Part shown: positions 2 to 50,672 of the stretch, piece by piece
Layout of the letters: every line of letters begins with the position of its first letter
Numbering within the stretch: the first letter of the stretch is position 1
DNA from: a virus
Lineage: Duplodnaviria; Caudoviricetes
Virus record (IMG/VR): IMGVR_UViG_3300025282_000046
Coordinates: 1-52,044 of that record
Strand: one strand, 5' to 3'
Length of the DNA: 52,044 nucleotides
Position numbers and translations under genes: made by a program
The notes under the pieces: generated by a model
The model's input: the letters and a program-made list of their open reading frames with translations, nothing else
The model's database searches: none
What the model was told of the DNA's origin: nothing

Positions 2-130
2 GTAATTAGATGGGATTTACCCCCTGATTTTAATAAAACTAAACACCAAGAAATAACCCCCACTCATACTAAGGTCTTTACGCCTACAGATGAAGATCTA
101 GACGAGGTATTATTTGACAACGAAACATAG
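2..130 (+). CDS. 3' end of a truncated hypothetical protein (VIRWDLPP...FDNET*)
   Basis: Open frame from the window edge to TAG at 128-130, directly upstream of the RBS of the next gene. Confidence 0.6.
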   Translation, partial: VIRWDLPPDFNKTKHQEITPTHTKVFTPTDEDLDEVLFDNET

Positions 131-139
131 GAGAAACAC

Positions 140-1036
140 ATGACTCAAACACAGGATATAGCGGTAGGAAAAACAGGAGCCCAAAAGTTTAGTGGTTTAG
201 GTTTTTCAGGACAAAAGATGGTGCATCCACCGGGACAACTACTAGGATTACTAGTAGGAATGCCGGGGACAGGTAAATCATCTTTCTTACAATCAAACCC
301 CGATGCATTCATCATTAACACCGATGGAACATCTACAACAAACCCTAACCCACAAGCCTGTATATGGCCCGGAGTTACAGCATTTGGTGAACCAATGGAT
401 GTGGGTGGTGCTTCAATGGTTCTTACATGGGATGAGGTTCTCAAAAAGAAAGAACAACTAATTAAAATGGTAGGTTCTAATACACAGAGACCACAAACTA
501 TTGTACTTGATAGTCTTGGACCTTCAATTCAACTCATGAAAGACTATGTTACCAAGAAAGCAGGACGAGAGAACTGGAAAGATCTCGATGGTCGAAGAGC
601 ATGGGATGATGTCTATGATGGACTACTCCGATTTTCATTAGACCTCCGCAGACACGGCTATGGATTCTTCTATGTATGCCATCTCGTAAATGCAAAGATT
701 CCACTAGGTGATGACCGATATACTATCAGACCCGAACTCACAATAACCGATTCGTTCTATAAAAGACTGTTCCCGATGTTCGAACTCGTTGCAGCATTTG
801 AATCCGATTGGGTATCCGAATCAAAACAAATACAAATGAAAGGCATCGGAGGAAAACCCGGACCAAAGAAAACCGAAACCGTAAAAACACAAAAATATTA
901 TATGACAATTAACGATGAGGCCCTTGCGGGAATCACTAAATGTCGTGTACAATTACCCGACCGTATTGAACTTCCACAGGAGTCTGCGTGGACTTCATTC
1001 GAAGAACAATACTTAACCGCTCAAAAGAAGGATTAG
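140..1036 (+). CDS. Sak4-like / AAA_24 P-loop ATPase (phage ssDNA-annealing recombinase)
   Basis: Walker A GMPGTGKSS, Walker B-like TIVLDSL, YVCH motif; AGGAG RBS; followed by an SSB-like gene as is usual for sak4. Confidence 0.75.
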   Translation: MTQTQDIAVGKTGAQKFSGLGFSGQKMVHPPGQLLGLLVGMPGTGKSSFLQSNPDAFIINTDGTSTTNPNPQACIWPGVTAFGEPMDVGGASMVLTWDEVLKKKEQLIKMVGSNTQRPQTIVLDSLGPSIQLMKDYVTKKAGRENWKDLDGRRAWDDVYDGLLRFSLDLRRHGYGFFYVCHLVNAKIPLGDDRYTIRPELTITDSFYKRLFPMFELVAAFESDWVSESKQIQMKGIGGKPGPKKTETVKTQKYYMTINDEALAGITKCRVQLPDRIELPQESAWTSFEEQYLTAQKKD

Positions 1037-1041
1037 CATCT

Positions 1042-1566
1042 ATGAGTATCAGTAACGAAACGAAGGCAGTCTTCGCACAAATTCAAAACGATTTCGAAGC
1101 CGCAAGCGCAGATCAAGGAATGGGATCATTAGGAGAATGGCCACCTAAAGGTGAACATGCTTGTTACGTTCTCGGAGTCAACGTACAAAATGGAACCTTC
1201 CGACAAACAGACGACAAGCAAGAATTTCCAGCGGTAACCGTACAATTCCATTATCAACTCTGTGAAGACCCAGACCGCACAGAACCATTGATCTGGAATG
1301 GTGCACCAATGACAATTCCTAACGATGCTTCGGTACTAACACACGAAGGTTCTCAAATCCGTGCCAAAATCGAACTAGGTAGATTAAAAGGACACCTCAA
1401 AACCATACTTGGTTATGAGCCAACAGACCTAGGTTCAGCATTTGAAGAAGTAGAAACCAAACTAAATGGTGACTCTACTATTGCATGTATGATTCGATGT
1501 AACTATACTGAACGAGGCACAACCACTTACAAAAGTGAGTACCTCCAAACACTACTTGGTGGTTAA
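1042..1566 (+). CDS. Putative ssDNA-binding protein (DUF669-like OB fold)
   Basis: Start moved to ATG 1042 (MSISNET); 'WPPKGEHACYVLGV' resembles the P-x-G-x-Y-x-x-x-I start of phage SSBs; follows the Sak4-like ATPase. Confidence 0.55.
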   Translation: MSISNETKAVFAQIQNDFEAASADQGMGSLGEWPPKGEHACYVLGVNVQNGTFRQTDDKQEFPAVTVQFHYQLCEDPDRTEPLIWNGAPMTIPNDASVLTHEGSQIRAKIELGRLKGHLKTILGYEPTDLGSAFEEVETKLNGDSTIACMIRCNYTERGTTTYKSEYLQTLLGG

Positions 1567-1587
1567 TAAATAGAACCCCCACTCTTA

Positions 1588-2316
1588 GGGCTCCCCGATT
1601 CTTCCCGATGACGGGAGCCCCATTTAGTAGGTACCTTCTGTAAGGTCATGTGCCTTTAGGCTGGGCTGAACTAATATAGACATTGTGCAGCCTACTCCAT
1701 CACTCCTTTGTTGCTCTTAGTTCATTCAATAGGTGTGACTCGACTAGTTATCGTCACCTATTGCAGAGGGTATCTACTAATTGAGGGGCATTTAATAGAT
1801 ACCTTATACGGCACCTATTAAGACGGTAGGTTAGGCGTTGCTTCCTAACTGAGAATCTTATTAACCCACAAAGGGGTGCCACAATCTAAGGGGAGTAGTA
1901 ATTTGAGCTGGAACTAGTGAAGCCTAATAAAACAGCCAGCATAGGCACGTTGCTACTCCCCACCAATCCACGCTTTAATAGCGGATCAAGAGCCTAGCGA
2001 GGTTGAATCTCCAATGAGGGGAAGGCTCTCCGCACCAATCTAATACCTGTGTCCCGTACCTAGGGACTGCAAAATGAACGCTCTGATGAATGACACCCCG
2101 CTGGATACAAGGGTGATTGGTAATCCAGGTTTAATTACCGGGAGGGTCAATGCCTAATAACAATTCACTTCTTGTTCATCGCAGGTATAATATAATAGGG
2201 GTGGGCAGCTGGAGCATGCAGTTAAATAACTATAAACAGCTACCCCACCCCATAATTTATGTGTAACCACGGCTAGACGGGTTCACGGAGATAATCTTGG
2301 CATCTCCGGCACATAT
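1588..2316 (+). ncRNA. Array of tandem structured RNA modules (or one large ncRNA) of unknown class
   Basis: No ORF >=60 aa. Seven consecutive stem-closed modules: 1588-1620, 1624-1780, 1810-1884, 1890-1965, 1981-2037, 2043-2188, 2198-2251, plus 2258-2315. Closing-stem mismatches are G-U on the + strand. Confidence 0.7.
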
Positions 2317-2351
2317 AGCCCTCACTAGTAGAGATATTAGTGGGGGTTTTT
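2317..2351 (+). terminator. Intrinsic terminator closing the structured array
   Basis: 14-bp stem AGCCCTCACTAGTA / TATTAGTGGGGGTT with G-U pairs, GAGA (GNRA) tetraloop, T run. Confidence 0.7.
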
Positions 2352-2392: not shown

Positions 2393-3808
2393 ATGTCAAG
2401 ATATAGAGCCACTAAAGCAATGATCGAATCTCTTAAAGGATTAGATACATCTATCGCGGCACAGAGAGCCCGTGTCCATGCCGCTATGACATTTGAACCT
2501 AAATTACTCTACACGGCAGGGACAAACTTAAAGGGAATACACGGTAAAGGAGGGGCTTTATTTGCGAGGGAATCTTTTGGATTACCCTTAGGTAAATTTG
2601 AGGGTATCCACGGTAGAACCATAGCGGTACCCACAAGAACAGGACCTCCCATAACTACTTTACCAGCAGAAGAAATTAGACAATGGCTCTTAAAATATAG
2701 AAATACTATGCAATCAAACCCTGACAAGATTGCGTTGTTACCTCCTATTGGAATGGGTAATGCAGGTATAAAATCCGATGTAATGTTAGGAATGATGGAC
2801 GATGCGGGGCTAATGCAAATGGGAAAACAAATAGTACCCACAGCCGAGATGGTAGGCAAAGGATTCCCGGAAACCGCAGCACGTTTACGTCTAATTGAAG
2901 GAATGAAAAAAGCACAAGGAGGCACTATGCCTAAAGTTACTACATCGTTTGTGGGGCCTATGAGCTTCCCTATCATGGGAGCAAGAACCGTCAAATCAAG
3001 AACTACCTTTAATGCCATTACAGCAGGTGAACGAACCATGACAACACGCAAACTTGGACAAGGATGGGAGGATCTTAAAGTAGGAGATGTATTTCCTATT
3101 ACAGGTAAGGAGGGTCAAACCCAACTAATAAAAATTACACACGAACCTGTAATACATACTGTTACAGGTAAAGAATCACAGGCGTTTCTAAATAGATGGT
3201 CTCAACTTGAAGGTCATGGACCAGAACAATTCAATAGGATTTTTAAACCAGGACAAAAAATAACAATGGTTAAATATAAATTTGGAGGTAAATCAGTAAT
3301 ACATTCTGGGGGTGCAGATGGAGCAGATACTGTGTTCCAAAATGCTGCGTTAAAAAAAGGACATGAGGTACAAGCCCACTCTTTTGCAGGACATGCAAGA
3401 GGAAACAGTGCAAGAGTAGAACATTCTCTTGCAGAATTAAAAGAAGCAGATGTCTACCTTCACAAGGCCAATCAAACTCTTAAAAGAAGATTCCCGGCTA
3501 GTAATGAATATGTAAATAATCTTCTAAGAAGAAACCTATATCAAGTTAAAGATTCAGATCAAGTGATTGCAGCAGCACCTATTAAATATGGTCAGGTACA
3601 AGGAGGTACTGCATGGGCTACTCAAATGGGAATTGATATGGGTAAACCAGTATTCGTCTTTGATTTAAAAACAAACCAATGGATGAAGTGGGTAGGTAAT
3701 GCTTATGTTCCATCCTCAGCACCTTCTTTATCCGCAAGTTTCGCAGGTATAGGCTCTCGTAAAATAACAAAGGTGGGGGAAAAAGCTATAGAAGATCTAT
3801 TCACTTAA
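2393..3808 (+). CDS. Multidomain protein: basic N-terminus + ASCH/PUA-like domain + SLOG (YspA/DprA-like) domain
   Basis: ASCH-like 'FNAITAGERTMTTRK...LKVGDVF'; SLOG motifs 'IHSGGADGAD', 'LLRRN..QV.DSD', 'GGTAWA...GKPVFVFD', 'FAGIGSR'; GGAGGA RBS. Confidence 0.7.
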   Translation: MSRYRATKAMIESLKGLDTSIAAQRARVHAAMTFEPKLLYTAGTNLKGIHGKGGALFARESFGLPLGKFEGIHGRTIAVPTRTGPPITTLPAEEIRQWLLKYRNTMQSNPDKIALLPPIGMGNAGIKSDVMLGMMDDAGLMQMGKQIVPTAEMVGKGFPETAARLRLIEGMKKAQGGTMPKVTTSFVGPMSFPIMGARTVKSRTTFNAITAGERTMTTRKLGQGWEDLKVGDVFPITGKEGQTQLIKITHEPVIHTVTGKESQAFLNRWSQLEGHGPEQFNRIFKPGQKITMVKYKFGGKSVIHSGGADGADTVFQNAALKKGHEVQAHSFAGHARGNSARVEHSLAELKEADVYLHKANQTLKRRFPASNEYVNNLLRRNLYQVKDSDQVIAAAPIKYGQVQGGTAWATQMGIDMGKPVFVFDLKTNQWMKWVGNAYVPSSAPSLSASFAGIGSRKITKVGEKAIEDLFT

Positions 3809-3824
3809 CATAAGGAGAACAACA

Positions 3825-4623: not shown

Positions 4624-4780
4624 AAAGTGGGGGATTAGAGTTCGAGGTAAGTGGTGGGTACAATCAGCAGATCAAGATGCTACCTACTATATGAAACGTG
4701 AAGCCCAAAAAGATGCCGACGATTTCAACAACCTCCGATTAGATAAAGAAAAAGTCTACACGGTAGAAGAATATAAGTAG
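4607..4780 (+). CDS. Small hypothetical protein (57 aa, MTKTLKKWGIRV...), not in the ORF track
   Basis: AAGGAG RBS before ATG 4607; open to TAG 4780. Confidence 0.6.
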   Translation: MTKTLKKWGIRVRGKWWVQSADQDATYYMKREAQKDADDFNNLRLDKEKVYTVEEYK

Positions 4781-4893: not shown

Positions 4894-5309
4894 AATACAC
4901 AGAGGTCCCTGTATTCCCCCTTATTACTAGTGGGAAGGTTGATTCTCCTACAGATCCAAAGGCGAGATGGAAACTAATCGTCTCTGTGCCGACCCGCACA
5001 TTAGCCACCCCCACTTCTCAACAGAGTCATGCGAGACTCTTTGGAGTGGGGGATTGGTTAGTGGTTGTATGGGCTAAAAAGGAAGGCATCTCTAGGAAGG
5101 CCGAGATTACCCTGTACGAGGCTTCTAAGGGAGACATACCTCCGAGGGTAGATGTCTTTGGAAACGTTCGTATACGAACCCTCAGTAAGCAAGATTGGGT
5201 CTCTCTAATAGAAGTTCAATTACCTGCCGGACAAACTAGAAATTGTAGATACTCTGGGGCTATTGTGGAGGGTGCAGCATCTATCCAAATATGGACAAAA
5301 GTGCAATAG
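4890..5309 (+). CDS. Hypothetical protein
   Basis: 139-aa ORF; last + strand gene before the convergent late operon. Confidence 0.55.
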   Translation: MKYTEVPVFPLITSGKVDSPTDPKARWKLIVSVPTRTLATPTSQQSHARLFGVGDWLVVVWAKKEGISRKAEITLYEASKGDIPPRVDVFGNVRIRTLSKQDWVSLIEVQLPAGQTRNCRYSGAIVEGAASIQIWTKVQ

Positions 5310-5359: not shown

Positions 5360-6580
5360 TTATTTTTGAGCTCCAAGTAGCGGAAGCATTAAGGATAAGA
5401 GGAGCAAGGGGAAAGTTAACTTCCTCACAGAACCCACTCTAAATTGTTTAGCTTCAGGAGATTTTTTTACTATTTCCCTATAAAAATCTGCATATCTATT
5501 TTTACCTCCCGGTCCACTGCTTAAATTAGTAAGTAAATCATCAAGATGTTCTGCTTGTTTTATACCATACCCCTTTAAATATTTAGGAGGTATAGCTTTT
5601 CCAGCTTGAATTTCACCGAGTATAGCTCTTTCAGGGATAAGAGTTCTAGCTATTTCAGGAGATGTTATATATCCTTTCTTAATTAATGTAGGAAGATCTG
5701 CTTCAACTAAAAAAGGAGCCTTTTTATAACCAGGTAATCTAGATGCATCAGGACGACCTATATTAAAAAAAGCACCTCTTGCAGAATTAGGTTCATCCTT
5801 CATAAACCTAGCCACCTGTATTAAATTCATATCTTGATGCCCAGGCCCTCCCATTTTTAATCCTTCCTTCATTACGCCTTTTAAATTACCAGTGTAATGA
5901 TACCCTTTAGTACCGGGTAACATACCAGCACGATCTACATTAGGATTCGAGATGGACTTAGCTACAGACATTATATATTTTTCTCGTTCATGCTCTCTTA
6001 AAGCCCAATCAGCAGCCAATCTCATCATTCCTAAATTACGCTTCTTACCCTTCCAAATAGGATCTATTATATTTCCTAATGCAGGATTTACCTTTCTTCC
6101 TTTCATCCGTAGAATATCTCTATTTCTAAGTTGTTCTAAATACTCCCTTCCTAATGTAGATTTGGCTGCTTCTCTAAATGTTTTACCTCTAAGAGAAGTA
6201 AACGGGCGGGAAGGATTTTTAATTTTAAATGCTTCAGCAACTTTATAATTAATACGCCCTACTCCAGGCATTCTTCTTTGATAGGGAAGTCCTGTTTTAG
6301 GATCTACTAATTGATTCCAAGTTCCCATTTGAGCAGGAATCTCTATGCCACCGCCCCTACCTCTTGCCCCAAGTGCAAAATCAGATCCTTTAAATAATCC
6401 AACATCCCTTTGAGTTGCAGGAGAAGGTAAAGGAAAACCTTTCTGTAATAATCTAGACCTGTTTGAAGAGGCTTCTCTTGCCATAGTAGACCATTGTTCA
6501 GGAAACCACCCACTAGAATATTTATAAAGATCTTCAAGGATCTTTTCTACTATTTTTTCATGAGGAGTTATTTTAGCCAT
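5360..6580 (-). CDS. Basic protein with ADP-ribosyltransferase-like domain and C-terminal hydrophobic tail
   Basis: 'GYHYTGNLKGVMKEGL...FLVEAD...GEIQ...IPPKYL' matches the YH(G)T..I..EGL...IPP.YI pattern of Tpt1/KptA/DarT-like ART folds; tail KLTFPLLLLSLMLPLLG. Confidence 0.55.
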   Translation of the reverse strand: MAKITPHEKIVEKILEDLYKYSSGWFPEQWSTMAREASSNRSRLLQKGFPLPSPATQRDVGLFKGSDFALGARGRGGGIEIPAQMGTWNQLVDPKTGLPYQRRMPGVGRINYKVAEAFKIKNPSRPFTSLRGKTFREAAKSTLGREYLEQLRNRDILRMKGRKVNPALGNIIDPIWKGKKRNLGMMRLAADWALREHEREKYIMSVAKSISNPNVDRAGMLPGTKGYHYTGNLKGVMKEGLKMGGPGHQDMNLIQVARFMKDEPNSARGAFFNIGRPDASRLPGYKKAPFLVEADLPTLIKKGYITSPEIARTLIPERAILGEIQAGKAIPPKYLKGYGIKQAEHLDDLLTNLSSGPGGKNRYADFYREIVKKSPEAKQFRVGSVRKLTFPLLLLSLMLPLLGAQK

Positions 6581-7349
6581 CGAACAATTCTACGTGAGCA
6601 TCCCAATCTGAAGTAGAGGGTCTACGAGGTTCCGACAAGGAAGCCTCACCTCTAACAATAGCAGCACCCCACCCCGAAGAATCCTTACGATTCATATAGT
6701 CAGGATTGAGGGGTCCCATCGTACCCGCATTAGCGTAGTACCACGGCAGCTTTATTTTAAGGGTTCTCTTGCATTGTTCAACCCCCACTGTAGGTCTATG
6801 GGTATGACCCCTTATAAATAATCTATGGGCGTGACCGCCCGCCATCTGTGCCATTTGTATGGTTTCTAATTCATCGCTATTAATTCCCGAATCAAAGCCA
6901 TGATAAAAATGAACCTGCCCTAATTTATACATACCCTTTTTAGATTTTGTATAGGGTATCTGCTTCCACTTCGTAAAAAGTTCACCAAATTCATAATGCT
7001 TATTCCACGACAACAAGGAACGCAAACCCCGAGGAGAACGCCTCGGATCTTTGGCTAAAATATTATCGTCATGATTCCCATGAATCCAAATTAACTCAAC
7101 TTCCGGGGGCAATACAGCCATAATATCTGAGAGGTACCGATGACCCCGCTCGTACTCGTCCTCGAGAGCATGCTCGAACTCGTGAGGGTGAACCGAGACC
7201 GAACTCGCATCGAAGAGGTCACCAAGCATTATAAAATGAGTGGGGGAAGAGTCCGAGAGAGATGCAAGCATCCACTCCTTAGCCTCAAGATTTTCAAATG
7301 GTGTGTGTATACATGATATCGCTGCGAAAGTTGCTTTTATTGGTTCCAT
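6573..7349 (-). CDS. Calcineurin-like metallophosphoesterase
   Basis: Motifs SCIH (D replaced by C), LGDLFD, GNHD, FYHG, GHTH. Confidence 0.85.
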   Translation of the reverse strand: MEPIKATFAAISCIHTPFENLEAKEWMLASLSDSSPTHFIMLGDLFDASSVSVHPHEFEHALEDEYERGHRYLSDIMAVLPPEVELIWIHGNHDDNILAKDPRRSPRGLRSLLSWNKHYEFGELFTKWKQIPYTKSKKGMYKLGQVHFYHGFDSGINSDELETIQMAQMAGGHAHRLFIRGHTHRPTVGVEQCKRTLKIKLPWYYANAGTMGPLNPDYMNRKDSSGWGAAIVRGEASLSEPRRPSTSDWDAHVELFDG

Positions 7350-12789: not shown

Positions 12790-12810
12790 GACAACCCCCA
12801 CTCTATTTTA

Positions 12811-22551: not shown

Positions 22552-22568
22552 TTAATTGTATCCTAACT

Positions 22569-24394: not shown

Positions 24395-24403
24395 ACTTTT
24401 TCC

Positions 24404-37929: not shown

Positions 37930-38351
37930 TACGTGTTACGCTCTGTTGCTACCGCAGTAAATGTTAGGGTGAATGCTATTCTTCCTAATGCAGCCGCTAA
38001 CATTTGAGGGTCTGCTCCACAAGAAGAATTAGTTCTTAATTCTTTAAGGATAGGATAAAACTGATCCCTTAAGTTTCGGTCGCTGTCGAAAAGGTTATTG
38101 AATGTTATCTTGTAAAGATTCTCGAACCCCCCACTCCATTCTTCCACATCGTAGACTCCGAGGTCACGGATGGCGGTTGCACCGAATTGTAGGAACTCCA
38201 TCACAGGTAAGGTTTGAAGTAGGGAGACTGCTTGTTTGGACAAATTGTCTAACTTAGGCGTTGTCTTTTTCGTTACTTTTTTTGCTGTTTTCTTTGGGGC
38301 AGATGATTTCGTGCTTTTGCTCAATTTCTTTTTGGTTGCTGATTTCGCCAT
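37929..38351 (-). CDS. Hypothetical protein with Lys-rich (histone-like) N-terminus
   Basis: 'MAKSATKKKLSKSTKSSAPKKTAKKVTKKT'; stop overlaps terL start. Confidence 0.55.
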   Translation of the reverse strand: MAKSATKKKLSKSTKSSAPKKTAKKVTKKTTPKLDNLSKQAVSLLQTLPVMEFLQFGATAIRDLGVYDVEEWSGGFENLYKITFNNLFDSDRNLRDQFYPILKELRTNSSCGADPQMLAAALGRIAFTLTFTAVATERNT

Positions 38352-38691: not shown

Positions 38692-39205
38692 ATAAATCTA
38701 GTATACTCCCTGGACGCTTGGTTATGTCACCAAACACCCTAATTGATTTCTTAGTATAGGTGTTTTGGTATTCTTCGGGTAGTTCTGCCAAACCCGCTCT
38801 TGCCATTCTATATGCAGCTTTTTGTGCTGCCTTCTTAACATCTGTTGTCATATTAAGACCCCCCATAGTTTTACACGCTAGAAGTTCGCACAGTAGAGGT
38901 TCTAAATTCTTTGCTACATATTGAGGATCGAGTTTAGAGGGCTTCTGTTTTCCTGTCGCTATCGATTGGCATCCTGACACGAAGAAGTCTGGTTCCCCCA
39001 CTCTAGTGATGGCTTTAAGTGCGAGTTGGAAAGAATTCATTTCAACGTAAGTTGTTTTGCCCATTTCAATTAGAGGCACACCCAACGCACGACAGAAAGA
39101 TCGGAACGCTTTCTTTGTGATGTTGGTTCCAAACTCTTTGATGTACCAATCTTCCGATAGAAGTTTAATACCCGTACCGAACCCTATGTAGAACTGTTCA
39201 CTCAT
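38630..39205 (-). CDS. Hypothetical protein (possible DNA-binding N-terminus)
   Basis: Start revised to MSEQFY at 39205, just after the previous stop. Confidence 0.55.
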   Translation of the reverse strand: MSEQFYIGFGTGIKLLSEDWYIKEFGTNITKKAFRSFCRALGVPLIEMGKTTYVEMNSFQLALKAITRVGEPDFFVSGCQSIATGKQKPSKLDPQYVAKNLEPLLCELLACKTMGGLNMTTDVKKAAQKAAYRMARAGLAELPEEYQNTYTKKSIRVFGDITKRPGSILDLYGQEELNEEPDTGDDPKDDS

Positions 39206-41546: not shown

Positions 41547-41563
41547 AATATAAGGATACAACA

Positions 41564-42970: not shown

Positions 42971-42988
42971 ACACAGAAAGGAACAATA

Positions 42989-43267
42989 ATGGAAGAATAC
43001 ATTATGAGTAAAGAGGCTATTGAAGGTGCATGTATATGTATATTGAATAGGATTATTATGAACAAAGATGTTGGATCACCCAAGAATGCTGACCCAGAAG
43101 ATCTATGGGCTCATTTAAAGATAAAATACAAAGATGGGGATGAGATTATCGATGAGGATAGTCTTATTTGGGACGTGTGGAGGGTAGGGAACGGGTATGT
43201 GCTTTATTGTTCGGAAACAAAAGAGACTATTGAGGTGCCGAGACCCGAGAGATTGGGTGGAGAGTGA
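42989..43267 (+). CDS. Hypothetical protein
   Basis: AAAGGA RBS; acidic 92-aa ORF. Confidence 0.6.
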   Translation: MEEYIMSKEAIEGACICILNRIIMNKDVGSPKNADPEDLWAHLKIKYKDGDEIIDEDSLIWDVWRVGNGYVLYCSETKETIEVPRPERLGGE

Positions 43268-43501
43268 ACCGGATGGCGTACCAGTTGCGTACCGGATGGA
43301 AAGTGCGTTTTTAGAGTGGAAATAAGGTTTGATCCGGGTGTACCGCATGTACCGGGTGTGTCTGTACTCTTTTACTAATCTATATATGGTCACGCAATGG
43401 TTACAAAATACCTGGTACACCCGGTACAAACCGAAAAATCGAGCTTGTAGGGGCCTAGAGTGGGGCTTTTTGAACCAGCTCATGCGGTACATACCCGGAT
43501 C
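43266..43501. repeat. Convergent GTACC(G/A)G iterons around an AT-rich core: putative replication origin
   Basis: Direct copies at 43266-43360; inverted copies at 43411-43428 and 43481-43501; GATCCGGGTGTACCGCATG / CATGCGGTACATACCCGGATC inverted pair. Confidence 0.6.
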
Positions 43502-43851
43502 GGAAGTGGATCGCCCCTATTTTTAGCCTAAAAAGGGACATGAAAAAAATGAGATTTTGAAGATTCGAAGGGTTGTGTTAATTTGGGGGGTTTACGGTTG
43601 GGTGAGGTGAGGAAAATTGTATATAGGGTGAGGAATTCCTAGACAGGATCGGTGTTTCGTAATGACCACAGGCAAACACCTAGGGGGCTTCGGGGGTACC
43701 CAAGTTTACGTCGGGAAGGGGACACGGAAGGAACGCTACGCTGTGGACTCACGTATTTCGTCACTGAAGTGACGAGGAACGGGAACTCGGGAACCACAAA
43801 CCACAACTAACTACACACGGAGTCAGACTATTACCTTGTTTTAAGAAGGAC

Positions 43852-43916
43852 ATTTCGCATCACCATACTTGCTCCTTCATCGGGGCAAGCCCTCTTCGGA
43901 GCGGTGATGCAACAGT
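43852..43916. repeat. Structured element, copy 1 (ATTTC-GCATCACC-ATAC...C-GGTGATGC-AACAGT)
   Basis: Flanks conserved in three copies; 8-bp stem. Confidence 0.8.
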
Positions 43917-44072
43917 CGGGTTCGGGTATATTTTTTGATTTTACAGTCCAAATCTGCTAGTAAGACCACAATCTACACGCTCTTGATTGAGAGTAGATGC
44001 GAACATTCACTAATTCGTTAGAGTGGCAAAGATTTAGACTTTTATTTACGCATGACATATGCATGCACCAAA

Positions 44073-44121
44073 CTGACCTAAACACGTCAGTAGTTGAGTA
44101 ACCAGTCTCATCAAACTGTTT
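44073..44121 (+). ncRNA. Pseudoknot motif copy A (with inserted hairpin)
   Basis: CTGAC-CTAAACAC-GTCAG...AAAC-TGTTT. Confidence 0.5.
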
Positions 44122-44123
44122 TT

Positions 44124-44199
44124 AAGGGGTAGATACAACAAGGTGAAAAACAACACATTTTAAGTGATTACAGCACTCTTCGTATCTACCCTTTTTTTT
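44124..44199 (+). terminator. Long stem followed by T8 (terminator/attenuator-like)
   Basis: AGGGGTAGATAC / GTATCTACCCTT, then TTTTTT. Confidence 0.45.
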
Positions 44200-44205
44200 A
44201 TAATG

Positions 44206-44270
44206 ATTTCGCACAACCATACAGGTCTCGACTGCGGGTAAGACCTTGTCTTCGACGGTTGTGCAACAGT
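44206..44270. repeat. Structured element, copy 2 (ATTTC-GCACAACC-ATAC...C-GGTTGTGC-AACAGT)
   Basis: Compensatory changes relative to copy 1. Confidence 0.8.
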
Positions 44271-44327
44271 TGTTATTGGGTGAATTTTTTGTTTTTTTAT
44301 CATAATCTAATCTAAAGGAGTATTATT

Positions 44328-44570
44328 ATGAATTATTATGATTTAATCGGGTTGTGTCCAGACAAAGAACTTGATAATTTGTCTCACCTAATAATTGAAG
44401 GTTTTATTTCAGACCTCAAAGATTTAAAGATTTCGGATGATAATCTTAAAATGCTTATAGAACACCTAGAAGACACGGTAAAAGCATTAAAAGGCTCAAA
44501 TGCACTTTATCAAGGCGAGCAACGAATTCAGTATGTTCCTACGACACCTGAGATTCTACAGGTAAATTAA
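44328..44570 (+). CDS. Early hypothetical protein
   Basis: AAGGAG RBS. Confidence 0.65.
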   Translation: MNYYDLIGLCPDKELDNLSHLIIEGFISDLKDLKISDDNLKMLIEHLEDTVKALKGSNALYQGEQRIQYVPTTPEILQVN

Positions 44571-44588
44571 ACTAAAAGGAGATTTATT

Positions 44589-44903
44589 ATGCCAGTTATA
44601 CAAATAAGTAGAAAGTTTTTCAAGAACGAGTACGGGATGTCCGTCATCACAGGCGGTTACGGATGGAATACACCCGATACACCCTTTGAAGTAGCAGTAC
44701 TCAAAGGCACAGAAGACAATTGGGTAATCTGCTACGACACTCCCATCACAAATGATGTCATCGGATACTTATCATCTGATGAAGTAGACGCTCTTGAAGC
44801 AAAAATAAGAGAACTACCTTGGCATGGAACTTCTATGGGTAATCCTGCGGTAGGGTTTATGATTCATGAAATGAACGCTTCCGATATGAACGGTGGAAAT
44901 TGA
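44589..44903 (+). CDS. Small phage protein (F.N.YG.SVI...FEVAVL...TPITNDVIGYL type)
   Basis: AAGGAG RBS; motif recalled from uncharacterised phage proteins. Confidence 0.7.
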   Translation: MPVIQISRKFFKNEYGMSVITGGYGWNTPDTPFEVAVLKGTEDNWVICYDTPITNDVIGYLSSDEVDALEAKIRELPWHGTSMGNPAVGFMIHEMNASDMNGGN

Positions 44904-44904
44904 T

Positions 44905-44971
44905 ATTTCGCACGACCATACAGCACTTCAGGCTCGGGCGTAGCCGAGCCTTAGTGCGGTCGTGCAACAGT
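44905..44971. repeat. Structured element, copy 3 (ATTTC-GCACGACC-ATAC...C-GGTCGTGC-AACAGT)
   Basis: Compensatory changes relative to copies 1 and 2. Confidence 0.8.
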
Positions 44972-45020
44972 CGAGTTTTTATGTAATTTTTGTTGTCTTT
45001 AACACAAGGAGAAATGTACA

Positions 45021-45440
45021 ATGACATACAATTATAGCGTCCAAACAGGACAAACAGTCACAATGAAAGGTGGCGAAAAAGGAGAATATGGTCTCCAAAT
45101 TGATTTCGGATTTGATAAACTTACCATTCCATGGGAATCTGTACAAATATGGGATTTTGGCACTGGAGCAGATGCAATGAATCCATGCCAACTTTACAAC
45201 GGTGAAATCCAATATGTACTAGCATATTCTGCAAAAGACATAAAAGGTGATAACATCCGAGCATTCGGAAGTAATGCACGCTTTATGTGGAACGTACCCA
45301 AAGAAGTATTCTACGATGTAGCAAAACTTCAAGGTAAAGAAGATAAGATTGCAACTTGGGAAAGCACAGCGAAACCATACGTTGCACCAACATCTGCACC
45401 TGCTAACACAACCGTAGCAGAAGCAGAAATCCCAGTTTAA
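45021..45440 (+). CDS. Early hypothetical protein
   Basis: AAGGAG RBS; A/C-rich codon use. Confidence 0.7.
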   Translation: MTYNYSVQTGQTVTMKGGEKGEYGLQIDFGFDKLTIPWESVQIWDFGTGADAMNPCQLYNGEIQYVLAYSAKDIKGDNIRAFGSNARFMWNVPKEVFYDVAKLQGKEDKIATWESTAKPYVAPTSAPANTTVAEAEIPV

Positions 45441-45449
45441 CCCCTAAAC

Positions 45450-45475
45450 ACACCTCGGCAAGTGTCTAAACTGCC
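45450..45475 (+). ncRNA. Pseudoknot motif copy B
   Basis: ACAC-CTCGGCAA-GTGT-CTAAAC-TGCC. Confidence 0.55.
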
Positions 45476-45724
45476 CTTTGGGGAAGGTAAAACAAATAAC
45501 TAGAATTTTATATTCTTAACAAATAAAGGCTGACGAGCCTGTGGGTGGCTGAATAATCACTTGGAAAGGTGATAAAGCACACATTAGTCTGTAGTAGACT
45601 GTCCAACGACCAAGTGGTAAAGGACATACTCCTAACCGAGTTTGATGTGATATTCTGGCGATAATACAAATAGTATTTCCCTCTGGAATTGCAGGTAAAC
45701 TTTATCCTGCCCCACACCATATTT

Positions 45725-45751
45725 GACCTGAACAAGTCTCTAAACTATTCA
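45725..45751 (+). ncRNA. Pseudoknot motif copy C
   Basis: GAC-CTGAACAA-GTC-TCTAAAC-TATTCA. Confidence 0.5.
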
Positions 45752-45959
45752 CTTTTGGCGTGTGAAATGAACGCTCGAAGACTCGCTATCATCTTTCACT
45801 CGCGGACTCGGACAACACCGAACTCACATCCAAACAAACGGGTAACACTCCGTAAACCAGAAATTGTTATCTACATCAATTCATAACGATCCAAACCCAA
45901 CTACCCTCGAAAACACAAAGTCCAAATCAACCCCAAACCAAGTTCAAAGGAGAACAACA

Positions 45960-46325
45960 ATGAAAAACTTTTTCGATAAAGCATGTAATATAGCATTCAC
46001 ATGTGAAGGACTAAAACTTTTACACCAAACCTTATCCGAACACTCTAATGAAATAATAAGGCAACAAGAGTGTGAAGAACATAATGAACCGGAAGGAACA
46101 ACATTAGGAAGAGAAGTACTAAAGGCTCTAAGAGATTGTTCTAATGTTGATGATGATGAATTATTAAAGAAAATGCCAAATCTTATATTCACATTAATTA
46201 CTGAAAGACAAATTAAAGAATCATTATACAATCTTCGAGATCTAATACTCGAAGATTTAAAAGATGAAATGGAACCTTTAGAATCAACATTCCATGAATT
46301 AACATCATCCCCAGACCAAGAATAA
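45960..46325 (+). CDS. Hypothetical protein (start revised to MKNFF)
   Basis: AAGGAG RBS before ATG 45960. Confidence 0.65.
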   Translation: MKNFFDKACNIAFTCEGLKLLHQTLSEHSNEIIRQQECEEHNEPEGTTLGREVLKALRDCSNVDDDELLKKMPNLIFTLITERQIKESLYNLRDLILEDLKDEMEPLESTFHELTSSPDQE

Positions 46326-46341
46326 ACAAAGGAGCAACAAA

Positions 46342-46878
46342 ATGATTAAAGCAATCAAAGCGTTGTGGGCTACACTCAAAGATCCACATTTACTATCATC
46401 AAAACCTCATCATGACACACTAGTCACCATTGCAGTAAAGAAGTTCACCATAAAGAATGGGTATTTAAGAGAGTTCAACGGTGACACCCTACATTGTAAA
46501 ACCTCTGTAGAAGACATGGATAAGGTAATACGAGAAATGCAAAAGTGGGATTCTTTTCTCACCAAAGACCTATATCCAAGTGGAGTGCAGCAATCAAGGA
46601 TATCCTCTGTCATTCGTTACTTACAGTTTGTAAACCTTCTTCCTCCTAAAAGGAATAAAGATAGGACTATAACCGTAAGCAACAAGCCATTGAACACCCA
46701 ACTCGAAGAAGATACTGGATGGACGTGTTCACAGTGTCAAATACGACACACATCAGATATGAAGATAGGACACAGAGAATGGGATTTCTTAAGTGAAGAA
46801 ATACTACTCTGTGTACAGTGTTGTGATGACCTAAATTATCAAGGGGCATCAGAAGCAGAAAAAGATGCTCCCTTCTAA
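46342..46878 (+). CDS. Hypothetical protein with C-terminal Zn-finger-like CxxC...CxxC
   Basis: AAGGAG RBS; CSQC...CVQC. Confidence 0.65.
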   Translation: MIKAIKALWATLKDPHLLSSKPHHDTLVTIAVKKFTIKNGYLREFNGDTLHCKTSVEDMDKVIREMQKWDSFLTKDLYPSGVQQSRISSVIRYLQFVNLLPPKRNKDRTITVSNKPLNTQLEEDTGWTCSQCQIRHTSDMKIGHREWDFLSEEILLCVQCCDDLNYQGASEAEKDAPF

Positions 46879-47038
46879 ACTCGTAAGTGGGCAGTCATTT
46901 CTTCAGTAAAATAATATACAGTCAAATACCTAGATTTGGACTGTAATCACTAGGTACGTCTAAACCCCTATATACAAAGTAATATCGTTACTCACTGTAT
47001 ATAGGGGCGAAGACACTAAGAACAAAGGAGAATTAATT

Positions 47039-47356
47039 ATGGAATACAATTTCCCAGAAAGTTTTGGAGATTATCTAAAAAGATCTTTAATATATTGGAT
47101 TGACGATGCAGTGTATCCCGGTCATTTTGTAAAAGCAGTTCTTACAAATGACTTATTTGAAGCAATTGCTCGTGCAGATGGTGAGAATGCTAGGATACTC
47201 CCAGATATCGTGAGGTGGGTTTATTCAAACGCACCCCGAAATTGTTGGGGTAGTAATGAAGAAATGAAGACTTGGAAATCTTCTGGTGGATTGAGAGGAA
47301 TCAAAAATGCTGAAGCCACAGAAGCCACAGAAACCACAGAAACCAAACACATATGA
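47039..47356 (+). CDS. Small phage protein (PG.F..AVL.NDL..A..RAD..N type)
   Basis: AAGGAG RBS; motif recalled from uncharacterised phage proteins. Confidence 0.7.
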   Translation: MEYNFPESFGDYLKRSLIYWIDDAVYPGHFVKAVLTNDLFEAIARADGENARILPDIVRWVYSNAPRNCWGSNEEMKTWKSSGGLRGIKNAEATEATETTETKHI

Positions 47357-47447
47357 AAACAATTCAATCGAGAATATCGTTTCGATACCCGCCCGCTCTC
47401 GCGAGGGCGGGTATCTTCACTTTAAACAAGAAACAAAGGAAACAATC

Positions 47448-47822
47448 ATGTCAACAGAAATATCAGGAAGCGTATCAATAACTAGCAATGGTGACATTTT
47501 TATCCATTCATCTATAGAAAATTATGACCTCTTATTTAAATTAGATGCAATGAAAACACGCTACAAAATCAACCTCGTAGCAATAAACTCCGGTGATGAG
47601 AAATTAGTAAAGCCAGATATCAAAGGGTTAACCATTAAAAATCTTAAAGCGGCAAAAAAGAAAATACCAAATTGGTTAACAAAGAAGGTCAAACTTAACT
47701 TGCAAGAAGACACCTTACATTCAATCAAACTTGCCATCGAATGTTCTTGGAAAACACCCAAAGCATCATTCGAATCACTAAGCCAACTAGTAAACGAAGC
47801 AAACGAAGCAGTAACCACTTAA
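47448..47822 (+). CDS. Hypothetical protein (start revised to MSTEIS)
   Basis: AAGGA RBS; preceded by an 11-bp GC hairpin at 47384-47415. Confidence 0.6.
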   Translation: MSTEISGSVSITSNGDIFIHSSIENYDLLFKLDAMKTRYKINLVAINSGDEKLVKPDIKGLTIKNLKAAKKKIPNWLTKKVKLNLQEDTLHSIKLAIECSWKTPKASFESLSQLVNEANEAVTT

Positions 47823-47841
47823 AGGAAAAGGAGGCTCAAGG

Positions 47842-48336
47842 ATGAGCAAAACAGGAAAATGGAGTTGTGTATCACAATCAGATAGTAATCAATTTGGAAA
47901 TTGTCCTTTACAATGGGACAATGAATTTCATTGGGAACACGATCAAAACCCACAAGCATTTCGAAGGAAAGACCACTGGGAATGGGTAGGAGCAGGACAT
48001 ATACCCAATGAAAAAGAAATAGAATCATTCTATCGTGATTTAGATACAGACACAGTGGATGATTTCTATGTAACAAAAGAAATAATACTTGGTGCTGTAA
48101 TAGGAAAGAGTGCTCCTAATCATTCAGAATGGAGCATAGTAGTAAGAACAGTGATACGTTGGGAAGAAAGAAGAATGCGAAAGAACATAATAGTACGAAA
48201 TGTAAGAGCACCAAAACATCAAAACCATAAACCTTCAGATATCGAAAGATGGGAACAAACACATGATCGAAATATCAGAAACAACCGAAATAATGCTCGA
48301 AGAAGTAGAAACACTAATAGAAGAAGGACTCACTAA
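47842..48336 (+). CDS. Hypothetical protein
   Basis: AGGAGG RBS. Confidence 0.55.
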   Translation: MSKTGKWSCVSQSDSNQFGNCPLQWDNEFHWEHDQNPQAFRRKDHWEWVGAGHIPNEKEIESFYRDLDTDTVDDFYVTKEIILGAVIGKSAPNHSEWSIVVRTVIRWEERRMRKNIIVRNVRAPKHQNHKPSDIERWEQTHDRNIRNNRNNARRSRNTNRRRTH

Positions 48337-48559
48337 ACAACAAGTATGGGAGCAACTACAGTCCTCTAATCTAACCGACACCGAACTCGACCAACTCGTT
48401 TCACTACTAGAAGACAAAGGAAACAAACAACTAGCAGAAGAAATAGCCCTAGGAATCCACACACCCACTCTACAAGGTGACATATTACGTAATGCACCTT
48501 GGTATAATAACGACTACTGCAATAACGCAGATCATCAACAACTAAGGAGGAACAAATGA
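48263..48559 (+). CDS. Hypothetical acidic protein
   Basis: Helical 98-aa ORF; ATGA overlap with the next ORF. Confidence 0.55.
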   Translation: MIEISETTEIMLEEVETLIEEGLTKQQVWEQLQSSNLTDTELDQLVSLLEDKGNKQLAEEIALGIHTPTLQGDILRNAPWYNNDYCNNADHQQLRRNK

Positions 48560-48732
48560 CAGATAAAGAAATTAAATGTCCACACTGTGAAGATACTGGT
48601 AGAGAGCCTAACTATCCTAATGAACCTTGTCACAGGTGTAGACCTGTACCAAGACATTTAGATGGGTTCCCAATGGGTGAAGTTAGTAATGAATATGCTA
48701 GTGAATGGTTGAGCGAATTTGATGATAGATGA
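48556..48732 (+). CDS. 58-aa Zn-ribbon-like protein (CPHC...CHRC), not in the ORF track
   Basis: AAGGAGG RBS; open 48556-48732. Confidence 0.6.
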   Translation: MTDKEIKCPHCEDTGREPNYPNEPCHRCRPVPRHLDGFPMGEVSNEYASEWLSEFDDR

Positions 48733-48744
48733 AAGGATTAAACT

Positions 48745-48975
48745 ATGACAAAGGAACAAAAATATCAATTGTGTAAATTGATAAAAAACTTACAAGGTAA
48801 CCTTATAAAGTTACATGCAAACGGAACAACCGGAACTATTATGGATGAGTCTTTAGATATACTCAACCAATTAGTAGGTTGGCTCGTAATCTCAGGCATC
48901 GAGAAAGAATACAATGAAAAACTCGATGAACAAGCAGCAATATCAGAACACGAAAATTGGAGACAGAACTCATGA
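48745..48975 (+). CDS. Hypothetical protein
   Basis: AAGGA RBS. Confidence 0.55.
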   Translation: MTKEQKYQLCKLIKNLQGNLIKLHANGTTGTIMDESLDILNQLVGWLVISGIEKEYNEKLDEQAAISEHENWRQNS

Positions 48976-49790
48976 AACGTCACAACTGTAATGAATACGT
49001 AGAGTATGAAGACCTCGCAACCATACCTCTACCACCAGCAAGAGATAGATTCGTGCCTATGGCACATCAAGACCTATTCGATAGAACAGTAAAGAACCTA
49101 TCAACACTAAACTACGAACCCGTAAAACCTAGGTTCTTACTTGACCACACAAAACAAAAGTTTATAGCCACATTTGGTATTAAACAAAGTGCAAAGGCAT
49201 TTAGTAGTGGATCTGTAGATCAATTTGCAAACAATGACTATCAATTTGAAGTAGGTCTAATAAATAGTAATGATGGCAGCATGGCAGCCAAACTATTCAC
49301 AGGTACCCGTGTATTCGTGTGTGCCAACGGTCAATGGTCGGGTGAAGTAGTTCTCTCCCGTAAACACACTCGTAACGCAGGTTACGACATCAACCGCGGA
49401 CTCCGAGACTTCGTATTCGAACTCGAAGACACTCGCAAAGAAACCTTTGCAAACTTTGATAGACTTAAAGAATATGACTTTGGTAGTAAATCAGAAGTTC
49501 ATGATTTTATAGTTGAAACTTGCAATCGAAATATCCTTCCTTGGCAACACGCACCTAAAGTACTTGAACACTGGAATAATCCAGAACATGACGAATTTAA
49601 AGACCGCAATGGATATTGTTTATTCAACGCATATACATCACATTGGAGAGATGCTAATCAATTCTCTCTATCAGACAAAACAAAAAGATTAAGGAGTTAC
49701 ATCGATGAGTTCAAACAACCACAATACGTTGGATCAGCTGAACAAAGATTTGAAGAATCACCAAGATCAAATGGAATATCACCGTGGTGA
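48972..49790 (+). CDS. DUF932-family protein
   Basis: 'GLINSNDGSMA...GTRVFVCANG...RKHT' and 'LFNAYT' signature; start at MKRH (ATGA overlap). Confidence 0.8.
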   Translation: MKRHNCNEYVEYEDLATIPLPPARDRFVPMAHQDLFDRTVKNLSTLNYEPVKPRFLLDHTKQKFIATFGIKQSAKAFSSGSVDQFANNDYQFEVGLINSNDGSMAAKLFTGTRVFVCANGQWSGEVVLSRKHTRNAGYDINRGLRDFVFELEDTRKETFANFDRLKEYDFGSKSEVHDFIVETCNRNILPWQHAPKVLEHWNNPEHDEFKDRNGYCLFNAYTSHWRDANQFSLSDKTKRLRSYIDEFKQPQYVGSAEQRFEESPRSNGISPW

Positions 49791-49953
49791 AATCAAATTA
49801 TTAGAAGAAGAAAAATTAGAACTTTTAAAGTCTGATCCATTTGCTTCAGCAGAAGCCGCAGCACTACTAATAGGGACACACCCTAAATATTCACCTGATA
49901 CAACAGGTCTTGCTTCTGCAATTTTAAGGGCAACACACCCTAATAATTATTAA
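49705..49953 (+). CDS. Hypothetical protein
   Basis: AAGGAG RBS inside the preceding gene. Confidence 0.5.
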   Translation: MSSNNHNTLDQLNKDLKNHQDQMEYHRGEIKLLEEEKLELLKSDPFASAEAAALLIGTHPKYSPDTTGLASAILRATHPNNY

Positions 49954-50036
49954 GAACCAGTTTCCTCCTTTGACTCTGGTTTAGGAAGACTTCCTTACTT
50001 GTGGGAGTGAAGTCTATAATCTAAAGTCCCACTAAC

Positions 50037-50073
50037 GATCAGGCTCGTCCTCTGGATGGGTTTGGTCTTTTTT
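50037..50073 (+). terminator. Intrinsic terminator
   Basis: GATCAGGCTCGTCC / GGATGGGTTTGGTC stem with G-U pairs, followed by a T run. Confidence 0.65.
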
Positions 50074-50231
50074 TAGGGGAAACATAGCATTTAATTTCTT
50101 CCTACGTTCTTCACATTTAGAACAAGTAGGGATTTTCACAGCCTTAGTGAGCCTTTGGATTATATCCCCAAGACCCTCAATTGGTTGTTTGTCACTCTTC
50201 ACAAGGAGACTCCTTTATCTATAATAAAATA

Positions 50232-50672
50232 ATGGAACACGAATATAATAGTCACGATAGTTACGACATAGATATTAGTAATATTAGAGATTCAGATCGT
50301 ATCTGTTGGCAGTATACCACAGAACCCCCACTCAATGAGGAAGAAAGATGGTTTGAAGCTACACAAAATATGTATTGTAAATTATCTCCTATAACTGAAG
50401 CACTTGCCACATCAAGTGACTATGTACACTTAGAAAAACTTAAACCCTCAAATATACTCGAGTGGTACTACCGACTACACTCCCTATTCGATGCAGAAAT
50501 CGGATTCTTATACACAGATACACCTGAAGGCGAAGTACCAATAAAAATAACTCTAACAGACCTTAAAGATCATTTAGGTCTCCGAGTAGATACTAACAAT
50601 TGGGACACAAACAAATTTGATAGAAGTATAAGAAACATTCGTATGCAAAATCACATACGAGAATTACTATAA
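50232..50672 (+). CDS. Hypothetical protein (start revised to MEHEY), probably leaderless
   Basis: TATAAT 6 nt before ATG 50232; no SD. Confidence 0.6.
   Translation: MEHEYNSHDSYDIDISNIRDSDRICWQYTTEPPLNEEERWFEATQNMYCKLSPITEALATSSDYVHLEKLKPSNILEWYYRLHSLFDAEIGFLYTDTPEGEVPIKITLTDLKDHLGLRVDTNNWDTNKFDRSIRNIRMQNHIRELL

Follow-up and report, generated by a model that had tools for sequence, protein, structure and literature searches.

A selected octamer written across the genomes of a divergent lineage of marine phages

Introduction

Most known cases of DNA words selected genome-wide, such as Chi, the FtsK orienting polar sequences (KOPS) and the uptake sequences, come from cellular chromosomes or from phages that have taken over the Chi of their hosts. 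Here we analyze the octamer CCCCCACT in IMG/VR record IMGVR_UViG_3300025282_000046, a 52,044-nt stretch of DNA from a virus of the Caudoviricetes that constitutes the entire record of this virus and is referred to below as the window. The octamer had been noticed by a model that read only the letters of the window and ran no database searches (the original prediction). We class CCCCCACT within the broad kind of selected genome-wide DNA words, and its likenesses to and differences from the best described members of this kind, as well as from several other dispersed or repeated signals of phages, are as follows.

Chi of the coliphages LLS and P1 and of Pseudomonas phage MD8 (PMC12315714; PMC3784561) resembles CCCCCACT in being an exact, non-palindromic, G-rich octamer that is the commonest octamer of the genome, occurs once per 1-2 kb, lies in coding DNA and exceeds what codon usage would give. 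Chi is found once per 1.86 kb in LLS (PMC12315714) and once per 1.9 kb in P1, where it is the commonest octamer (PMC3784561). Its orientation is strongly polar, with ratios of 20:3 in LLS and 32:0 in MD8 (PMC12315714), and the Chi-rich lambdoid phages are described as having no recombination modules of their own. Chi-rich phages carry the word of the host, in one orientation and without their own recombination module, whereas the phage carrying CCCCCACT has such a module, uses the word strand-symmetrically, shares a constant core with relatives of 38-65% GC and follows a head-to-head rule in the placement of its sites.

The uptake sequences, which include the uptake signal sequences (USS) of Pasteurellaceae and the DNA uptake sequences (DUS) of Neisseriaceae with their dialects, are like CCCCCACT in occurring about once per kb, in both orientations and in all frames, with lineage dialects and some inverted pairs. 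They are, however, chromosomal and are read by the uptake machinery of the cell, whereas CCCCCACT is phage-borne, its pairs lie inside genes at 19-250 bp, and no uptake system is involved. The stoperators and other dispersed operators of phages (L5 gp71, P1 C1) also comprise tens of asymmetric, scattered sites whose specificity differs between related phages. In the L5 literature stoperators lie mainly between genes and follow the direction of transcription, and operators of this kind are longer (13-17 bp), for the most part intergenic, transcription-oriented and found in temperate phages with a known repressor, none of which holds for CCCCCACT. Known phage nick sites of the T5 and phiKMV type are confined to one strand, while CCCCCACT has 27 copies on one strand and 13 on the other. 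Finally, the iterons of self-loading SF3 primase-helicases (P4 alpha, SaPI Rep; PDB 7OLA) are octamer-sized words read by the same helicase family as that encoded in the window, but they cluster at the origin, whereas CCCCCACT is dispersed and absent from positions 42086-50324, and the role of an origin word in the window is better filled by a cluster of GTACCGG(A/G)TG repeats. No known kind could be matched in all of its defining features, and we have therefore filed CCCCCACT under none of them, be it phage-borne Chi, uptake sequences or stoperators. A literature search with the octamer gave unrelated primer or vertebrate papers among the matches listed, and we make no claim that the word is unpublished.

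Results

Abundance and consensus of the octamer

The 40 copies of CCCCCACT counted by eye in the original prediction were all recovered at the same coordinates by a pattern search, which found no further copies. They comprise 27 on the plus and 13 on the minus strand, or one per 1.3 kb. Dinucleotide-preserving shuffles of the window yielded a mean of 1.5 copies and at most six (n = 100), and Markov models of order 1 and order 3 predict 1.6 and 2.1 copies, respectively, so that the strong over-representation first reported stands under these models while the accompanying expectation of around one copy is revised to 1.5-2.1. In a ranking of all 8-mers of the window CCCCCACT is top by far and the remaining top words are overlapping pieces of it. 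Its z-score under the maximal-order Markov model is only 4.6, but this model is uninformative for CCCCCACT because the inner 7-mers are borne by the same sites. The one-mismatch neighbors of the octamer have 0-4 copies each and all eight positions are therefore specified. Alignment of the window sites extends the octamer to a wider and less strict consensus, (A/T)A-CCCCCACT-C(T/C); at +9, C is present in 28 of the 40 sites, and A is favored at -1 and -2.

Selection at the DNA level

The 51 genes called in the window cover 92% of it and contain 34 of the 40 sites, in all six frames, while six sites lie outside called genes, two of them inside alternative open reading frames (ORFs). When synonymous codons were shuffled gene by gene the mean was 7.9 copies (standard deviation 1.6, maximum 14, n = 1000), and permutation of whole codons gave a mean of 6.2 (n = 1000), both means including the six non-genic sites, which these shuffles keep in place. 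With the six set aside, about 34 genic sites compare with 0.2-1.9 expected.

The excess can also be expressed relative to the protein contexts that are able to hold the word. Counting any frame and orientation there are 79 such contexts in the window and 34 of them are used, where codon usage predicts about 1.6. The same analysis was made for two relatives, namely G001, a complete 55.6-kb record with a terminal repeat that is collinear with the window (nucleotide identity about 75% across 25 kb), and the 63%-GC record G002. With ORFs of at least 60 aa, contexts are used in 33 of 77 cases in the window, 39 of 83 in G001 (1.8 expected) and 20 of 70 in G002 (1.6 expected), the expectation from codon usage being 1.6-1.8 for each of the three genomes. 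Contexts are used equally often with the C-rich and with the G-rich strand as sense strand (43 and 43% in the window, 47 and 47% in G001, 28 and 29% in G002), and selection is independent of the direction of transcription. The uneven strand split of 27:13 in the window, and of 22:9 within its minus-strand structural block, arises because the proteome offers more Gly-type than Pro-type contexts.

It is therefore well supported that CCCCCACT is a selected signal at the level of DNA, written via synonymous codons and not driven by protein sequence. The original prediction had argued against a protein origin from the variety of reading frames and the presence of non-coding copies; sites in all six frames and in non-coding DNA bear this out, and the excess remained when set against codon-preserving shuffles, a comparison in which that of a protein-driven word would have vanished. 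Its general inference of a selected DNA signal is one on which the codon shuffles, the use of contexts and the conservation of sites described below agree.

Conservation among related phages

Twenty-eight related IMG/VR loci were retrieved by their terminase (44-100% identity), and CCCCCACT is present in all 28, at 0.11-1.19 copies per kb and with GC contents of 38.5-63.6%, although locus L027 has only two copies. Against a control word, the pattern read backwards, counts in whole records are 41:3 in G001, 22:7 in G002, 2:4 in G003 and, from position lists, 19:2 in G004 and 13:0 in G005. In a de novo ranking by an order-3 model, for which 11 of the 28 loci were examined, CCCCCACT or an overlapping form is among the six top 8-mers in 10. 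The exception is L027, part of record G003 (L031, L032, L027), the most distant relative (terminase 44-45% identical, 64% GC, two copies of CCCCCACT), which has about 81 copies of CCCCTCCC instead, preceded by A-rich positions (AA-CCCCTCCC). G002 and L028, the GC-rich clade, share the unaltered 8-mer core and have flanks that read CA-CCCCCACT-G(A/G)(T/A)C, compared with AA-CCCCCACT-CT in the window. There are thus clade dialects, with a constant core, clade-specific flanks and CCCCTCCC in one distant relative, and the word follows the phage lineage and not base composition, as the same core occurs in relatives of 38-65% GC.

As to the word of G003 itself, CCCCTCCC is often found there as AACCCCTCCC, and both orientations occur. 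C is at +9 in 37 of its 81 sites, and the G-strand then reads GGGGAGGGG, which fits the KOPS pattern of E. coli, GGGNAGGG.

The occurrence of the word in unrelated viruses was assessed by an IMG/VR scan for one close convergent pair of sites, which listed at least 119 loci. Nine of these share at least three proteins with the phage and have 4-11 copies each at 40-65% GC, and every listed locus with seven or more copies falls within these nine relatives. Ten listed loci without any protein match held 4-5 copies, mostly as local hairpins or tandem clusters. A sample drawn in this way is biased and hence is supporting evidence only for a restriction of the word to relatives of the phage.

Conservation extends to single sites. 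Blastn aligns 29 window sites to G001, where 18 are intact, whereas full conservation is seen for only 17.6% of the aligned 8-mers as a whole. The sites kept there include 1576-1583 (+, intergenic), 6782-6789 (+), 7239-7246 (-), 24194-24201 (-), 28716-28723 (+), 34954-34961 (+), 35572-35579 (-), 37792-37799 (-, in the large terminase gene) and 38995-39002 (+), in addition to several members of the pairs given below and to the sole site of the early region, 50325-50332 (+). Turnover in aligned DNA amounts to 11 window sites and five G001 sites without a counterpart. The site at 4626-4633 (-) is aligned but lost in G001, and also absent from aligned positions there are those at 8173-8180 (+), 20090-20097 (+), 23467-23474 (-), 23857-23864 (+), 25123-25130 (+), 33159-33166 (+), 35070-35077 (+) and 38128-38135 (+), together with two in the large terminase gene, 36057-36064 (+) and 36517-36524 (-). 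Two sites are not alignable to G001, one outside called genes and upstream of the Sak4-like gene (57-64, +) and an intergenic one just upstream of a gene (2339-2346, -). Further sites are located at 12795-12802 (+, at a gene junction), 15710-15717 (+), 18332-18339 (+), 21993-22000 (+), 22440-22447 (+) and 27304-27311 (+). Individual sites are under purifying selection, with turnover.

The flanks of conserved sites match the flanks of random conserved 8-mers, except perhaps at -4 to -1 and +9 to +11, from which we take the functional unit to be about 8-12 bp. A longer hidden element around the sites was considered and is ruled out by this comparison, as the flanks are conserved no better than those of the random 8-mers. 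Sites are 2.9-fold denser in DNA that can be aligned to G001 than elsewhere (1.16 versus 0.41 per kb, P = 0.0015). Some ends of blastn blocks against G001 had looked close to sites, and a role of the sites as recombination junctions was also considered, but none of 150 block ends from 31 related loci comes within 10 bp of a site, where 3.1 are expected, and eight lie within 30 bp (7.8 expected), and this role was rejected.

Head-to-head pairing of sites

Adjacent sites that are no more than 500 bp apart tend to face each other. In the window nine such pairs are convergent (CCCCCACT...AGTGGGGG), five are divergent and two direct, and the corresponding numbers are nine, one and three in G001 and five, zero and two in G002. 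Permutation of strand labels gives P = 0.0008, 0.0003 and 0.0065 for the convergent bias in the window, G001 and G002, respectively. Strand composition cannot be the cause of this bias because the arrangement is symmetric under reverse complementation, and in random draws from the compatible protein contexts 3.18 convergent pairs within 500 bp were expected and nine were reached in none of 20,000 draws.

Pairs were also pooled from 40 related loci and the window, with L027, L031 and L032 (G003) and the unrelated loci of the convergent-pair scan set aside, and the 76 adjacent pairs were reduced to 40 pair families by merging homologous pairs. Up to 250 bp the families are 17 convergent, one divergent and four direct, and at 251-500 bp they are nine, five and four, so that the bias fades beyond about 250-300 bp. 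Distances within pairs range from 19 to 226 bp and no regular spacing was seen. The position lists of G004 and G005 hold three further convergent pairs within 250 bp and no divergent ones, as counted by eye.

The window has five close convergent pairs. The tightest, 37 bp from start to start, is formed by 5008-5015 (+) and 5045-5052 (-), both kept in G001, and is followed by 10810-10817 (+) with 10888-10895 (-) at 78 bp. Two pairs have a distance of 189 bp, namely 15116-15123 (+) with 15305-15312 (-), of which the left arm lies inside a gene for a 104-aa protein and is kept in G001, and 29428-29435 (+) with 29617-29624 (-), both kept in G001. The fifth, 41881-41888 (+) with 42078-42085 (-), lies at 197 bp in the gene for the D5-like helicase; both arms are kept in G001, and a 197-bp convergent pair is also present in G005. 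A repeated mobile element as the source of the five pairs is ruled out, as their interiors share no similarity.

The right arm of the 15116 pair is placed on the LTP(H/T) codons of the gene for the 104-aa protein, and the word also occurs there in the GC-rich clade, so that this site is common to clades with only 37% identity in that protein. The distance to its partner, described as downstream in both, is 189 nt in the window and 19 nt in the GC-rich clade, suggesting that a partner is retained in the vicinity although its exact place shifts. As single strands the close convergent pairs can fold into hairpins with z = -3.6 to -5.2 on the plus strand (-5.1 for the pair at 5008), but the divergent order would give a hairpin of the same stability, and pairing of the arms alone therefore does not explain the rule.

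Environmental sequences

All or part of the stretch 20000-29999 was found in 16 marine metagenome runs, 11 of which hold at least half of its sampled words; the run data consist of assembled contigs only, and no RNA runs are listed among the 16. Contigs of four runs that were not flagged as possible sources of the record cover 27-30 of the 30 bins of a 20-kb stretch with few differences. The same sequence is therefore present in the contigs of four further public runs, and the sequencing or assembly artefact against which the original prediction had cautioned is not the source of the sites. Among 40 listed of 243 variants one affects a site, an A>G change at 23025 in contigs of runs X8 and X9 that destroys the site at 23020-23027 (+), and single sites are therefore polymorphic in nature.

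Genome context and the early region

Neither megablast nor a tblastn search with the large terminase gave a match among 50,697 GenBank phage records, and the window comes from a very divergent marine phage. Its minus strand encodes the large terminase (35989-37929), a protein with an SU10-type adaptor domain (27428-30064), collagen-like tail fibers (24404-26848 and 26827-27450) and a metallophosphoesterase (6573-7349), and, among the tail and fiber genes, a polysaccharide pyruvyl transferase domain gene (22569-23342). No match in Pfam, PHROGs or the PDB was obtained for a 1356-aa protein (7337-11407, -). The ESM Atlas clusters nearest to it are the phage large polyvalent protein families LPD38, LPD39 and LPD3, and as a lead only it may be a multi-domain protein delivered by the virion. 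The first gene of the late block (39207-41591, -) encodes a 794-aa low-complexity protein rich in Ala, Glu, Lys and Gly, for which no homologue was found in G001, G002 or G003 and whose gene has no copy of CCCCCACT. On the plus strand are a Sak4-like AAA_24 protein (140-1036), a protein with a DprA-like domain (2393-3808), a 468-aa D5_N and SF3 helicase that matches the SaPI-type primase-helicase PDB 7OLA (41564-42970), and a UDG-superfamily gene that is cut by the end of the record (51491-52042). No tRNA genes, sought as a clue to the host, were found in the window.

About 6.7 kb between the two ends of the window is present only in G001 of the pair (compare L030, 9243-16122). In this extra block the UDG-like gene is complete and is accompanied by genes for a DNA polymerase of family A, a tandem helix-turn-helix protein of 89 aa and two nucleases, one of the ERCC4 and one of the RecB-family PD-(D/E)XK type. 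The block also contains seven copies of CCCCCACT. The window is therefore an incomplete genome that lacks a replication block.

The original prediction had also reported that the word is missing between 42086 and 50324, a region that it took to cover the origin and early genes. The absence is exact over this 8.2-kb stretch, which consists of ori-like non-coding DNA and small, poorly conserved early genes, but its value as a signal of early function is doubtful. The largest-gap test under uniform placement gives P = 0.038, and one site is found in 42086-52044 where 7.7 are expected (P = 0.004). Only four compatible protein contexts are available in the gap (45385, 46383, 47282 and 48579), none of which is used, most of its genes have no homologue in G001, G002 or G003 and can be regarded as accessory DNA, and the homologous early stretch of G001 has two sites. 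The gap is real and modestly unusual, and the simplest explanation is that it comes mainly from rapid gene turnover and not from a rule tied to early function, although a functional reason may contribute as well.

Beside the helicase gene the non-coding DNA at 43266-43500 contains at least four direct GTACCGG(A/G)TG-like copies and several inverted ones (for example TGTACCGGGTGT / ACACCCGGTACA), and the GC skew over 42-44 kb is +0.35. This iteron cluster is likely to be the replication origin, with a word distinct from CCCCCACT. Two copies of an element of about 90 nt are located in the early leader region at 43852-43942 and 44206-44296, 354 bp apart, each with a GC-rich inverted repeat and then a T run at its end, and they may be small RNAs or terminators.

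Discussion

In this lineage a word is present in large excess, is selected at the DNA level and symmetrically with respect to strand, is conserved at individual sites, is inherited across a wide range of GC contents with clade-specific dialects, and obeys a distance-dependent head-to-head rule. Together these features point to a reader of sequence. We propose that a lineage-conserved, probably phage-encoded, two-site DNA-binding protein reads CCCCCACT as a genome-wide docking word, and give this proposal a probability of roughly 0.4. The word with its clade-specific flanks would be read on double-stranded phage DNA regardless of transcription, selection would write it into genes via synonymous codons and keep single sites for long periods, and the reader would bind two sites at once, as a dimer or as a bridging protein. 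A dimeric or bridging reader would fit the short-range rule because short DNA loops permit only one relative orientation of the two sites while longer loops permit both. In this way the word would tag the chromosome of the phage as self for a factor acting in replication, recombination, packaging or genome organization. We infer the phage origin of the reader, its two-site binding and its role from the pattern of sites; a binding site for a host or phage protein was one of the options raised in the original prediction, and of these a site for a phage protein fits best.

Several observations weigh against this proposal. About 70% of the sites have no partner within 250 bp, even when one mismatch is permitted, which adds two partners in the window, three in G001 and none in G002, and two-site binding is therefore not the whole story. 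The convergent-pair rule was not seen for CCCCTCCC of G003 in the strand-label test, and the counts of G004 and G005 derive from position lists only. Searches of Pfam, PHROGs, PDB sequences and the ESM Atlas found no sequence-specific DNA-binding protein common to all the clades that carry the word, and in G002 no homologue could be detected for the tandem helix-turn-helix protein (89 aa) of G001. A reader with a conserved specificity could also be encoded by the host. In principle molecular drive, by biased repair or gene conversion, could also imitate selection.

All clades share the helicase, the Sak4-like protein with its neighbor (192 aa), a PD-(D/E)XK nuclease, the 1356-aa protein, which has features like those of polyvalent proteins, small proteins and the set of structural proteins. 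Also counted as conserved in the clades bearing the word are PolA, the UDG-like protein, ERCC4, a DUF932 protein, proteins of 104 and 169 aa and small terminase candidates. Neither three large proteins nor a profile of the 104-aa family gave anything usable as a reader when searched against PDB sequences, and in the ESM Atlas there was no usable match for the 104-aa protein and only the large polyvalent protein leads for the 1356-aa protein. For the helicase, the separate GTACCGG(A/G)TG iterons next to its gene are a likelier target than CCCCCACT.

Other explanations of the word must be set against a phage-encoded reader. The original prediction had considered a Chi-like site of host RecBCD or AddAB. 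On this view the phage would gather copies of its host's recombination hotspot, and its linear or rolling-circle DNA would be spared and recombined instead of being degraded. An 8-nt, G-rich, non-palindromic word with one copy per 1.3 kb has a density like that of Chi-rich phages, its sites are denser in conserved core DNA, and for a circularly permuted genome, in which ends could lie anywhere, either orientation might be of use. This option nevertheless fits poorly and we regard it as unlikely. There is no polarity, as the two orientations are interspersed and the ratio of 27:13 is explained by codon contexts; the lineage has recombination genes of its own (Sak4-like and DprA-like, with RecB-family PD-(D/E)XK and ERCC4 nucleases in G001); the 8-mer core is identical in relatives of 38-65% GC, while the flank dialects suggest a recognition length above eight; and Chi offers no reason for the convergent-pair rule. 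The one candidate host in which the word was counted, the 2.6-Mb metagenome-assembled genome (MAG) G006 (Candidatus Sericytochromatia), is not enriched, with 42 copies compared with 145 of the control word. Its link to the phage is a 3.2-kb contig (L034), the sole match in 185,579 species genomes, which has two copies of the word and a terminase 53% identical to that of the window; it is weak evidence of host identity and may be either a binning artefact or a hint to the host. Dispersed operators of a phage transcription regulator that silences or times middle and late genes, similar to the stoperators of cluster A mycobacteriophages or to the sites of P1 C1, would share with CCCCCACT the dozens of asymmetric sites genome-wide, the clade-specific dialects, the small number of sites in the early region and the positions of the sites at 57 and 2339 just upstream of genes, and two-site cooperative binding is common among repressors. 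Here, however, 34 of the 40 sites are inside genes with an orientation independent of transcription, the replication genes of G001 are also rich in the word, and no repressor, integrase or lysogeny gene was found in Pfam and PHROGs scans of the window and the annotated G001 region, in which many small ORFs are unannotated. A network of operators is thus distinctly improbable.

It is also quite unlikely that CCCCCACT serves as the recognition site of an enzyme that nicks DNA or modifies bases, comparable to the nick sites of T5 or phiKMV-type phages, or as a signal for the priming or loading of replication. The spacing of about 1 kb would resemble the length of Okazaki fragments, and the close convergent pairs can form stable single-strand hairpins (z values as above). 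With no primase domain found, in the helicase, which has only the D5_N and helicase domains, or elsewhere, an unusual route of initiation is conceivable, and the G-strand AGTGGGGG contains GTGG, a template word preferred by the NrS-1 primase-polymerase. This enzyme recognizes the template 5'-GTG(G/A)-3', and pRN1 ORF904, as cited in the same report, binds its recognition site through a helix bundle domain (PMC8718748). Against this reading, the word is on both strands with opposite-strand copies sometimes only 19-37 bp apart, where nicks would break the DNA, and no nickase, methyltransferase or primase domain was detected in the Pfam and PHROGs scans. In addition, the helicase is of the self-loading SaPI/D5 type and the GTACCGG(A/G)TG iterons are a better candidate for the origin. 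A last alternative dispenses with a reader and treats the word as the by-product of sequence-biased mutation, repair or gene conversion. Such molecular drive, if slow, would yield the observed higher frequency of sites in long-resident core DNA than in accessory DNA, and a UDG-superfamily gene is present. Known repair biases, however, act on contexts of 4-5 nt and produce modest skews, and a 20-fold excess of an exact 8-mer whose neighbors have 0-4 copies is beyond them. Drive predicts neither the convergent-pair rule nor the persistence of a site at the same codons in clades whose protein is 37% identical, and it is very improbable as the sole cause.

We return to the phage-encoded reader to consider what it could mean for the biology of these phages. 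In a more specific form, which is tentative and on balance doubtful, the word would be a self-tag run by the phage, where a phage protein that binds two sites or tracks along DNA would recognize an 8-12-bp word about once per kb, head-to-head pairs would control recombination-dependent replication, packaging or protection, and the specificity would co-evolve with the phage and so produce the dialects and the change to CCCCTCCC in a distant relative. If true, such a tag would be a viral, host-independent counterpart of the logic of Chi or DUS, and might be one instance of a wider, undescribed viral habit of writing genome-wide words. The proposal can be tested by protein-DNA binding assays with the few conserved proteins, comparing a AACCCCCACTCT oligonucleotide with one-base mutants. 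The word could serve as a metagenome signature for this group of uncultured marine phages, and if its reader were found, a DNA transaction of a new type would become known from phages.

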